Shown: piece after piece, positions 2,404-4,202 of the stretch | Layout: each line of letters begins with the position of its first letter | Numbering within the stretch: the stretch's first letter is position 1 | Origin: a virus | Lineage: Duplodnaviria; Heunggongvirae; Uroviricota; Caudoviricetes | IMG/VR virus record: IMGVR_UViG_2541047432_000013 | Span: 1-4,202 of that record | Length of the DNA stretch: 4,202 nt | Strand: one strand, 5' to 3' | Position numbers and translations under genes: made by a program | Notes under the pieces: model-generated | Databases searched by the model: none | Told to the model about the DNA's origin: nothing | What the model saw: only the letters and a program-made list of their open reading frames with translations

Positions 2404-3114
2404 TTACCCGTTATCTCCTGTCGTTATTTTCTGTATGACATCACGATGCTTATTAATTTCCCGCAGCGCGGCGCATAAGCGCTCCCACTTCTGAACCTGA
2501 CCTTTTGCCCGGCGCAGCTCGCGGTTAGCCACATGCAGCGATGGTAAAATCAGACCATCCGGATGCTTTCTGATGAACGACGACTGTGACTGCACTGTGA
2601 CCGCCACACTTTCAGTTTTAATTTCTTCCTGTGTTTCCGCTTCCCGGACTGGTAACGCAACACCTGCCGGCTGAGGAAAGGCTTTACCATCGGTTTCCGT
2701 TACCGATGCAGCTTTCGGCTCTGCCGGTAAATTATCGCCCGGTATGCAGTAACGATATTTACCGTCCTGATTTACGCGAATCAGACGACCTTTGCTGACA
2801 GCCATCGCCAGTGATGAATTCGCCCGGCGGGAGGTAATCCCGAACATTAACGCCAGTTCGTCCGCCGTTTGTGGGCCATGATGTTCAATCGCCTCAGTCA
2901 GCATTTGCGCTGTCACTTTCGGTACCGGTGACACTGGTTCACTTTCACCAGTCTGAGTCAGCCACCACATCGACCCCTTGTTATCCGCTTCACCACGGCG
3001 CTTCAGTTTCCACAGTTCGTTGACAGCATCTTCGCGGCTGATTCCAAGGCGCGATGCCACTACCTGTGAAGAGGCTTTTTTCAGTGCTTTCAGTGCGTCA
3101 AATACGGTTTCCAT
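2404..3114 (-). CDS. Phage protein with two tandem winged-helix-like (MarR-like) units and a C-terminal coiled-coil; possibly DUF1627-type
   Basis: True start is taken as ATG 3114 (GGAGG 8 nt upstream), not the in-frame TTG at 3132 used by the ORF track. Two similar units: ...[29 protein letters not shown]... and ...[32 protein letters not shown].... Occupies the position of ren in lambda. Confidence 0.75.
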
Positions 3115-3147
3115 TAATATTTCCTCCGACAAAATCGTTTCTCAGAT

Positions 3148-3810
3148 TCAAATAAAACCAGCTGCCTTCCGGCGTTCGTATTCCTGTTTCAGCCGTTCAA
3201 TTGGCGTTGGCCCTTGCGGGTGTTTCGCCCCTTCCAGTTGTCGTCGCACTGGCGGAACACTCATCCCGTTACCAACATGCTTTGCCCATTTCGTCAGTTG
3301 CCGTTCCGCAAGTCGTTTTAACTCACCTTGCGTCATCTGGCGCTCAATCCCTCTGGTACGCATTTCGAGGCAGATGTGGTACAGCACAGGCTGTGGCCAC
3401 GGGTATTTATCACTCCCGTCGTATCGCCAGGATTCATTGCGCCAGCGCCGGTACTCTTCCATCACGGCATCCACCGTAAGACCAAATGGATTTGCCCCAC
3501 TCTCCGAAATCAGCGCAACAAACTCAGCCAGGTCCGGGGGCCACGTTTCACCCGCCCGGCAGCGGTCCATGCACTGACGGCACACCAGACGGATTTGCTG
3601 TTCAGTCATCGCACCAATCTGGGCAATCCAGAGCTTCGAAGGTGCGGCCCCGTTCTTCTGAGTCCAGCGGTTCGAATACACCTCCCCCATGAGCTCCCAC
3701 AGCTTCCAGGCCGTTTCCGTTGCTGATAAATCCGTTGTCACGTTCCCACTGTTCGCGTGCAGCCCGGATTTCCTGAACTGCCCGTGATGCCGTGCCACCT
3801 GATGCTGCAT
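3148..3810 (-). CDS. Lambda P-like replication protein (replicative helicase loader); start codon uncertain
   Basis: Resembles lambda P as I recall it: TWPPDLAEFVALI versus PFLPSPGQFVAWC, and YPWPQPVLYHICLEMRTRGIERQMTQGELKRLAERQL versus YPWKSNAHYWLVTNLYQNMRANALTDAELRRKAADEL. ATG 3810 has a G-rich SD; alternative ATG at 3690 has GGGAG 3 nt upstream. Confidence 0.8.
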   Translation of the reverse strand: MQHQVARHHGQFRKSGLHANSGNVTTDLSATETAWKLWELMGEVYSNRWTQKNGAAPSKLWIAQIGAMTEQQIRLVCRQCMDRCRAGETWPPDLAEFVALISESGANPFGLTVDAVMEEYRRWRNESWRYDGSDKYPWPQPVLYHICLEMRTRGIERQMTQGELKRLAERQLTKWAKHVGNGMSVPPVRRQLEGAKHPQGPTPIERLKQEYERRKAAGFI

Positions 3811-4195
3811 GGCTTCCCCCCTTGCTGACTGGTTTTACCTGTGCCCTGACGTGCTGCACGTGGCGGGCAAATTTCTGCTCCCACTGAACCTGCGTGAAAA
3901 CCTTCCCCTCCGCCATCCAGTAATCCCGGAATGCGGCAAGCTCAGCAGGTGTAAATTCCGGCTCAGGCAGAGCCATACCCCACACTGCTGCCCGTTGTCG
4001 AAAATCCGGCGACGGCTGCCAGACAGTAGTCATCGAAAATTTCCCGATCGGTTCGCTCAGGCCGTCCAGGTATTCAGGTTCGGCTGTCTGCAACGGCGCG
4101 TCATTCGACTCACTGGTCGTAGTACTCTCGCGCGCGTTATGTGTGGGGTTTAATTCTTTATCTGTATCTGTATCTGTCGTGATTTGTCGTGACAT
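3602..4195 (-). CDS. DnaT-domain replication-initiator-like protein (phi80/Gifsy-type replication protein); 5' end may extend beyond the window
   Basis: GKFSMTTVWQPSPDFRQRAAVWGMALPEPEFTPAELAAFRDYWMAEGKVFTQVQWEQKFARHV matches the E. coli DnaT C-terminal domain ([29 protein letters not shown]...[23 protein letters not shown], recalled). Frame is open from ATG 4195 to the window end, so the true start cannot be fixed. Confidence 0.8.
   Translation of the reverse strand: MSRQITTDTDTDKELNPTHNARESTTTSESNDAPLQTAEPEYLDGLSEPIGKFSMTTVWQPSPDFRQRAAVWGMALPEPEFTPAELAAFRDYWMAEGKVFTQVQWEQKFARHVQHVRAQVKPVSKGGSHAASGGTASRAVQEIRAAREQWERDNGFISNGNGLEAVGAHGGGVFEPLDSEERGRTFEALDCPDWCDD
4160..4192. repeat. Short tandem repeats at the 5' end of the DnaT-like ORF
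   Basis: ATCTGT x3 (4160-4177) followed by GTCGTGA x2 at 10-bp spacing (4176-4182, 4186-4192). Encodes (TD)3 on the minus strand. Confidence 0.6.
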
Positions 4196-4202
4196 ATGCG
4201 TG

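Follow-up and report, generated by a model that had tools for sequence, protein, structure and literature searches.

Introduction

Same-strand overlapping genes of phages, such as Rz/Rz1 of lambda and those of phiX174, are read out of frame, with the Shine-Dalgarno (SD) sequence and ATG of the downstream gene lying inside the upstream gene, and their overlapped segments are often disordered. DnaT (primosomal protein I) is a protein of about 179 amino acids that takes part in PriA-dependent restart. A protein that combines an HTH_36 domain with a DnaT C-terminal motif is paired with a P-family protein in DopC/DopE (Brezellec et al. 2017, PMC5509034). The DopCE pair is chromosomal and domesticated and has been proposed to act as a helicase matchmaker, and its description makes no mention of an overlap (PMC5509034). 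The helicase loader of lambda itself, P, is built from a disordered N-terminal 'lasso' (domain I), a compact domain II, a domain III and a C-terminal lasso (PMC12661323). Here we analyse a stretch of 4,202 nucleotides (IMG/VR record IMGVR_UViG_2541047432_000013; hereafter the window, meaning this whole stretch), which is E. coli prophage DNA with a lambdoid, CP-933O-like replication module. Its two replication genes, an initiator gene and a P-like helicase loader gene (P), both lie on the minus strand and share 209 nucleotides in different frames.

A preliminary description of the window had noticed the overlap and offered three readings of it: a real long overlap, a later start of P at 3690, or a frameshift that truncates the initiator. 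Our comparisons of close and divergent loci support the first of these. We put the probability at roughly three in four that the overlap is real and evolutionarily conserved and that P starts upstream of its residue 34, most likely at 3810.

Conservation of the overlap

The features on which the argument turns are as follows.

3602..4202, minus strand: 3′ part of the initiator gene ('phage replisome organiser', DnaT-domain protein); the open reading frame (ORF) extends past the window end and has its TGA stop at 3604-3602
3148..3810, minus strand: P-like helicase loader gene, full length, 220 amino acids; ATG at 3810-3808, stop at 3150-3148
3602..3810, minus strand: dual-coding overlap of exactly 209 nucleotides, as had been estimated; initiator residues 129-197 plus the stop, P residues 1-69

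Within the overlap the frames differ by one base, such that P codon position 3 is initiator codon position 1. Since no stop precedes 3604, the initiator tail is translated to the stop at 3602-3604. In the other direction the initiator frame is open up to position 4201, at the last base of the window. Full-length initiator relatives have 343-347 amino acids, and the alignment with them spans 100% of the window fragment, tail included; the ATG at 4195 is thus not the initiator start. The preliminary description had envisaged initiator homologues aligning through the tail to the same stop together with P homologues that begin at residue 41 or later. The former was found and the latter was not.

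Both frames are kept in all 86 of the close-relative loci that were fetched, with an overlap of 209 nucleotides in 71 loci and 212 nucleotides in 15, and no insertion or deletion separating the two frames was present among them. A search of viral contigs gave only near-identical loci (96-100%), which served the population-level variant count only. The divergent set consisted of 41 loci from contigs of one genome per species, with P proteins 42-95% identical. In 37 of the 41 loci P is not of the lambda type, and 34 of these 37 have an initiator upstream; overlap counts use these 34. All 34 show an overlap of 149-224 nucleotides in the same relative frame, and they represent at least 14 genera (Escherichia, Citrobacter, Enterobacter, Klebsiella, Pectobacterium, Serratia, Rahnella, Erwinia, Rouxiella, Limnobaculum and others). 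Their upstream ORFs encode 307-394 amino acids and stop deep inside the P ORF, 22-94 nucleotides ahead of the P 'WPPD' motif (43-58 nucleotides in all but three loci). The three exceptions among the 37 are two stand-alone P genes and one locus (L119), put aside as possibly disrupted, whose P frame opens only at about residue 70. Three Vibrio phages have overlaps of about 190-212 nucleotides in the same relative frame, annotated there as 80 nucleotides, 11 nucleotides or none. Judged from these sequences, the arrangement is old, extending from Enterobacterales prophages to Vibrio phages.

To gauge the role of chance, we drew random synonymous codons under one protein and scored the openness of the other frame at each locus, ignoring relatedness. 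Given the P protein, the initiator frame was open in 0.5-12% of resamplings per locus and, given the initiator protein, the P frame was open in 4-59%. That both frames are open at 34/34 divergent and 86/86 close loci is more than chance allows.

Start site of P

The start region of P contains the following elements.

3814..3823, minus strand: SD sequence of P, AAGGGGGGAA, inside the initiator Lys-Gly-Gly-Ser codons
3808..3810, minus strand: proposed P start codon M1, the first ATG in the open P frame
3712..3807, minus strand: P residues 2-33, a variable N-terminal segment with mean identity of about 0.15, predicted disordered
3610..3711, minus strand: P residues 34-67, AWKLWELMGEVYSNRWTQKNGAAPSKLWIAQIGA, the strongly conserved helical start of a compact N-terminal domain
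3688..3690, minus strand: M41, alternative start of a 180-amino-acid database form
3607..3609, minus strand: M68, the start of the 153-amino-acid form in RefSeq and the Prokaryotic Genome Annotation Pipeline (PGAP), within ATGACTGA, giving an overlap of 8 nucleotides with the initiator stop

Lineage statistics were taken from 23 representatives that are <80% identical in DNA. The ATG equivalent to M1 is the sole upstream start common to all lineages, and in all of them it is preceded at normal spacing by GGAGG, GAGG or GGGGG. In the window the SD lies 3-5 nucleotides from ATG 3810, depending on the choice of core bases, and its energy against the anti-SD sequence is -11.0 kcal/mol. Across the 23 lineages the M1-equivalent energies average -8.9 kcal/mol, every one <=-5, compared with a mean of -2.5 kcal/mol at background ATG triplets (Mann-Whitney p = 1e-14). 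The initiator frame gives further information on this site. Its codon over the P ATG is NAT in 34/34 loci (His in 18, Asn in 13, Tyr in 2 and Asp in 1), never NAC, and the codon that follows is GNN in 34/34. That the ATG persists under a varying initiator residue is the hallmark of a start codon serving the other frame. The SD is likewise kept although the overlying initiator residues differ (GG, RG, EV, GE or RQ). Two stand-alone P genes that have no initiator upstream also begin ahead of the AWxLW motif, and remote P homologues match the profile from positions ~14-30. Taken together, these observations indicate that P most likely has a translation start of its own at ATG 3810, served by the SD embedded in the Lys-Gly-Gly-Ser codons of the initiator.

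Family-level conservation in the P frame begins at A34/W35, close to residue 33, from which the preliminary description had recognised P-like sequence; A34, W35 and L37 are conserved, and W38, W49, K52, N53, G54, P57 and W61 are invariant in the 23 representatives. Because invariant or conserved residues lie upstream of both, the starts at M68 (153 amino acids, RefSeq) and M41 (180 amino acids) are probably too short.

The alternative that survives best is the later start which had already been suggested, at M41 (ATG 3690). The overlap would then be only 89 nucleotides long and the open P frame upstream would be untranslated. M41 is Met in 22/23 lineages, many NCBI records (Salmonella, Citrobacter and Klebsiella) and the 180-amino-acid E. 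coli form use it, and an SD-like GGGAG with a mean energy of -5.2 kcal/mol precedes it. This SD-like signal, however, consists of Trp-Glu codons only 2-3 nucleotides from the ATG, and the SD and ATG of M1 are far stronger and are kept at the nucleotide level. The remaining lineage (L102) has Leu in place of M41. A start here would also leave out the invariant W38 and the conserved A34, W35 and L37, would break a predicted helix at residues 30-53, and would not account for the matches of remote homologues further upstream. We regard this start as unlikely.

A start at M68 (ATG 3609), with P coupled to the initiator stop through ATGACTGA and no long overlap at all, is very improbable. It is the form annotated by PGAP and GenBank for the E. 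coli relatives, and the layout of ATGACTGA looks like classic termination-reinitiation coupling. Yet the 34 codons upstream of M68 are the best-conserved part of the P frame, with the seven invariant residues, and they evolve as P-coding sequence: 16/19 E. coli-level variants in 3605-3711 are P-synonymous, a rate equal to that of the non-overlapping part of P. M68 itself is Met in only 15/23 lineages and lacks an SD, its mean energy (-2.6 kcal/mol) being at background level. As P residue 69 aligns to residue 81 of lambda P, this start would also lose the equivalents of domain I and about half of domain II. A minor, additional short P isoform may nevertheless be made from M68 by termination-reinitiation at ATGACTGA.

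A programmed +1 frameshift that yields an initiator-P fusion, and which the overlap would serve, is less probable again. The frames overlap by 209 nucleotides in a fixed register and passing from initiator to P is a +1 shift, but we saw neither a conserved slippery site nor a stimulatory RNA structure, and the conserved SD and ATG at M1 speak for independent initiation. RNA folding z-scores were 0.27 around the P start (3761-3880) and 1.29 around the initiator stop (3560-3700) and point to no regulatory or frameshift-stimulating structure. Last, a frameshift or assembly error that extends the initiator into P or truncates it can practically be dismissed, even though the initiator tail is Gly-rich, predicted disordered and without a Pfam match, since the same frames and the same stop recur in 86/86 close relatives, 34/34 divergent loci and the Vibrio phages, since homologues of 343-347 amino acids cover the whole tail, and since no frame-separating insertion or deletion was found in the relatives checked.

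Selection on the initiator tail

The upstream partner in the overlap is the C-terminal tail of the initiator, which follows its DnaT domain.

3839..4039, minus strand: DnaT DNA-binding domain (PF17948), fragment residues 53-119; Pfam score 63.8 bits against a cut-off of 25
3605..3838, minus strand: initiator C-terminal tail of 78 residues, without a Pfam match and predicted disordered
about 3737-3790, minus strand: predicted amphipathic helix of the tail, ASRAVQEIRAAREQWER, model residues 138-155
3605-3712, minus strand: acidic end of the tail, of a composition beyond expectation

Relatives of the initiator are named 'DnaT-like ssDNA-binding domain-containing protein', 'phage replisome organizer' or 'primosomal protein I'. 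The label 'DnaT-like' given in the preliminary description holds for the central PF17948 domain only; taken whole, the protein belongs with phage replisome organisers or initiators and is not a DnaT orthologue. The same description was right to call the tail Gly-rich, as the last 73 residues (from K125) contain 12 Gly. In an AlphaFold2 (AF2) model of the fragment, the predicted local distance difference test (pLDDT) score is ~80-84 in the DnaT domain and <50 in the tail, which has a helix at 138-155 and is presumably disordered.

The composition of the tail was compared with that expected from P-synonymous codons, using the last 24-48 residues per lineage (~36 in most) in the 23 lineages. The tail ends hold 192 Asp/Glu residues against 124.6 +/- 7.1 expected, an excess of ~9.5 standard deviations, and 61 Lys/Arg residues against 105.6 +/- 7.6 expected. 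Stops in the tail number 0, compared with ~0.4-2.6 expected per lineage (>1 in 22/23 lineages). The invariant Lys52 of P is encoded by AAG in 20/23 lineages against a background of 0.35 (p = 4e-7), and AAG here reads Glu, not Lys, in the initiator frame; the Vibrio phage tails have QEE or SEE at this place. In the 5′ half of the overlap, residues S137, A139, Q141, R144 and A146 of the initiator are conserved in the predicted helix and P is variable. In 3712-3810, changes that are non-synonymous in the two frames at once are depleted, with 4 found of 143 possible.

On these comparisons, constraint is staggered, with a flexible segment of each protein lying over a constrained segment of the other. 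In the 3′ half, conservation falls on the folded N-terminal domain of P, and all that is kept of the initiator frame is its freedom from stops and its acidity; in the 5′ half a short initiator helix is conserved and the disordered P N-terminus is free to vary. It is nearly shown by these patterns that both frames of the overlap are kept by selection.

Several observations weigh against the long overlap or against the strength of the case for it. P residues 2-33 show poor conservation and are predicted disordered. M41 hardly varies and is preceded by a moderate SD-like sequence, and internal initiation there may produce an additional P isoform. In the 3′ half of the overlap 16/19 E. coli variants alter the initiator, whose amino-acid evolution is almost neutral, and selection on this part of the tail seems to act on composition and length rather than on sequence. 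Synonymous divergence of P is 0.55-0.57 inside the overlap and 0.59 outside it, a weak test that we have not used as evidence. A profile comparison of P with lambda P by hhalign is significant only from P residue 82 onward. Finally, the lineages are not fully independent, which makes combined probabilities optimistic.

Modularity and proposed function of the tail

The same tail follows initiators of very different build. It was found after DnaT-domain initiators (L086, L109), after an initiator with a lambda-O-type N-terminal domain (Phage_rep_O; L101), after DUF1376 initiators without a DnaT match (L102, L105), after HTH_36/DnaD_N initiators (L103 and Vibrio phage D67) and after initiators without a recognisable domain (L104, L111, L114). 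The E. coli relatives join DUF1376, HTH_36 or other domains to the DnaT domain and the tail. Its presence on at least four unrelated initiator architectures argues that the tail accompanies the P subfamily rather than the origin-binding part of the initiator. A profile of 26 initiator tails matched only eight partial E. coli fragments in a large protein database, the profile being too short to inform.

With this in mind, we propose the following. The initiator is read through to the stop at 3602-3604 and P is most likely read separately from ATG 3810. The tail would act as an adaptor that lets initiators whose origin-binding domains are unrelated recruit P of this subfamily and, as the tail and the P N-terminus are specified by the same DNA, adaptor and loader would stay together during recombination among mosaic phages. 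An adaptor or docking role toward P is possible, though we rate its chances at somewhat below even; it is proposed because lambda O recruits lambda P through its C-terminal domain, and the fact that it draws on analogy only counts against it. More doubtful is the further idea that the shared 209 nucleotides encode the recognition surfaces of both partners, namely the helix and acidic tail of the initiator and the N-terminal lasso and first helices of P.

If the surfaces were shared in this way, initiator/loader specificity would reside on the same nucleotides and be inseparable by recombination. The locus would be a portable 'adaptor-plus-loader' cassette able to take up any origin-binding domain by grafting. 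Across a large group of temperate phages from Enterobacterales and Vibrio, the analysis suggests that initiator-loader specificity lies in a short disordered tail, one that cannot be physically separated from the loader gene. This would explain how mosaic phages swap very different origin-binding domains without losing helicase recruitment.

Initiators paired with lambda-type P at four other loci (L123-L126) also end in acidic and aromatic residues (...NNTDWINGVFDEKSF, ...HWNSPEAWEDFV). These C-termini resemble the 'D-x-x-D-W/R/F-x-D-D' end of the tail and may share a short docking motif with it.

The P protein

By its sequence, P is a predicted helicase loader of the PF06992 family. The Pfam entry (Replication protein P) matches residues 58-187 with 57.9 bits against a cut-off of 26, and phmmer aligns residues 69-192 to residues 81-202 of lambda P (8v9t; E = 0.0025). 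Homologues of P have 216-223 amino acids. Comparison of the P and lambda P profiles gave no sequence homology further upstream than residue 82.

The AF2 model of the 220-amino-acid protein has a mean pLDDT of 67; confidence in the AF2 models used here is medium to low. Residues 1-28 are disordered (pLDDT <50), and helices are predicted at 30-53, 59-66, 70-85 and onward. The best Foldseek matches of the model in the PDB are the lambda P chains from the DnaB-lambda P complex, at a probability of 1.00. The match to the sole fully resolved lambda P chain covers 215 columns, albeit with a root-mean-square deviation of 16 A and the same mean pLDDT of 67. The position of P residues 2-33 suggests that they correspond to domain I of lambda P. 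More generally, collinearity and a structure match of medium confidence are moderate evidence that the N-terminal region of P matches lambda P domains I and II.

The two stand-alone P-like genes come from two Erwinia genomes (L112, 2426-3052, 208 amino acids; L120, 2474-3043, 189 amino acids). With no initiator upstream, they adjoin ordinary chromosomal genes, by translation those of a TtcA-like protein and a phosphotransferase system (PTS) transporter, and they may be orphaned or domesticated helicase-loader genes.

Annotation of the locus

The 220-amino-acid P is identical to AAG56164.1 of prophage CP-933O in E. coli O157:H7 EDL933, and identical DNA has been deposited with P proteins of 220, 180 and 153 amino acids. 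In RefSeq/PGAP and in the Rac-SA53 record P begins at M68, giving 153 amino acids and an overlap of 8 nucleotides, and PPompW records have a P of 140 amino acids and no overlap. Prodigal disallows same-strand overlaps of >60 bp (PMC2848648). A limit of this type is the likely reason for the short annotations, and the 153- and 180-amino-acid forms probably carry artefactual starts, assigned by gene callers in which overlap on the same strand is restricted.

We found no description of this overlap in the open-access papers searched. The gene families, the pairing of a DnaT-C-motif initiator with a P-like protein, and the 220-amino-acid ORF, which has been in GenBank since the EDL933 genome, are already known. 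What is new is the comparative sequence evidence for a long overlap that appears genuine, ancient, under selection in both frames and systematically masked by present-day annotation. In practical terms, the 153-amino-acid RefSeq P would miss the most conserved part of the N-terminal domain, and expression, modelling or classification of these loaders from RefSeq would use a truncated protein. The locus also offers a deeply conserved case in which fixed limits on same-strand overlap systematically miscall real genes.

Neighbouring features of the window

The window region is 85-99% identical to Rac-like and PPompW-like prophages. Directly downstream of P, at 2404-3132 on the minus strand, lies a DUF1627 gene (242 amino acids, 263.8 bits) whose product has weak N-terminal winged-helix-like matches (AlkZ-like, AbiEi_4) and which adjoins P constantly among the E. 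coli relatives. At positions 1-117 of the minus strand a Hok/Gef-family toxin gene (MKQQKAMLIALIVICLTVIVTALVTRKDLCEVRIRTGQT...) runs off the start of the window, leaving only its 5′ part; in the relative L003 a gene is annotated as a Hok/Gef family protein. A scan of 3100-4202 for promoters and terminators gave nothing relevant within the overlap.

At the other end, the last 27 bases of the window (4176-4202) contain the first copies of iteron-like 10-bp direct repeats of the GTCGTGACA type. L003, a full-length relative, has two clusters of such repeats within its initiator gene (4583-4632 and 4853-4913), ~260 bp apart. By analogy with ori-lambda, which lies inside O, these repeats probably represent a candidate prophage replication origin inside the initiator gene. 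Near this place the initiator gene also shows signs of exchange. L005 (NZ_CP101302.1) and four further loci (H27-H30) are 97-98% identical to the window over P, the tail and the DnaT domain and have a different initiator N-terminal part (DUF1376), which suggests a recombination breakpoint within the gene near window position 4173. One further match, PP818812.1 (H2, 'Actinobacillus phage vB_Apl-pPE4'), has 86.6% DNA identity to the E. coli prophage module, which is unexpected for a Pasteurellaceae phage; it may be E. coli-derived sequence or carry a mislabelled host.

Comparison with known systems

The module most closely recalls lambda O-P in its plan. In both, the initiator gene precedes the helicase loader gene on the same strand, P belongs to PF06992 and, as judged from L003, the initiator gene contains iteron-like repeats just as O contains ori-lambda. 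In contrast, the O and P genes overlap by 4 nucleotides in lambda and by 4-17 nucleotides at lambda-type P loci, compared with 209 nucleotides here. A DnaT domain and a disordered acidic tail take the place of the lambda O C-terminal domain, and the N-terminal part of the window P forms a distinct subfamily relative to lambda P. The initiator shares the PF17948 domain with DnaT, but its relatives are 343-347 amino acids long, carry other N-terminal domains (DUF1376, HTH_36 and others) and the 78-residue tail, and belong to a prophage replication module. The domain combination of DopC/DopE occurs among the initiators found here.

The ydaU/ydaV genes of Rac-SA53 and the 'phage replication proteins' of PPompW are the same genes as those of the window, at 85-87% DNA identity. 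They differ in the annotated overlap, which is 8 nucleotides (P of 153 amino acids) or none (P of 140 amino acids); the long open P frame is present in these prophages and unannotated. Compared with same-strand overlaps of the Rz/Rz1 and phiX174 type, the overlap described here is terminal and not nested, its two genes encode partners in a single replication pathway, and it includes a modular tail that is shared by unrelated initiators.

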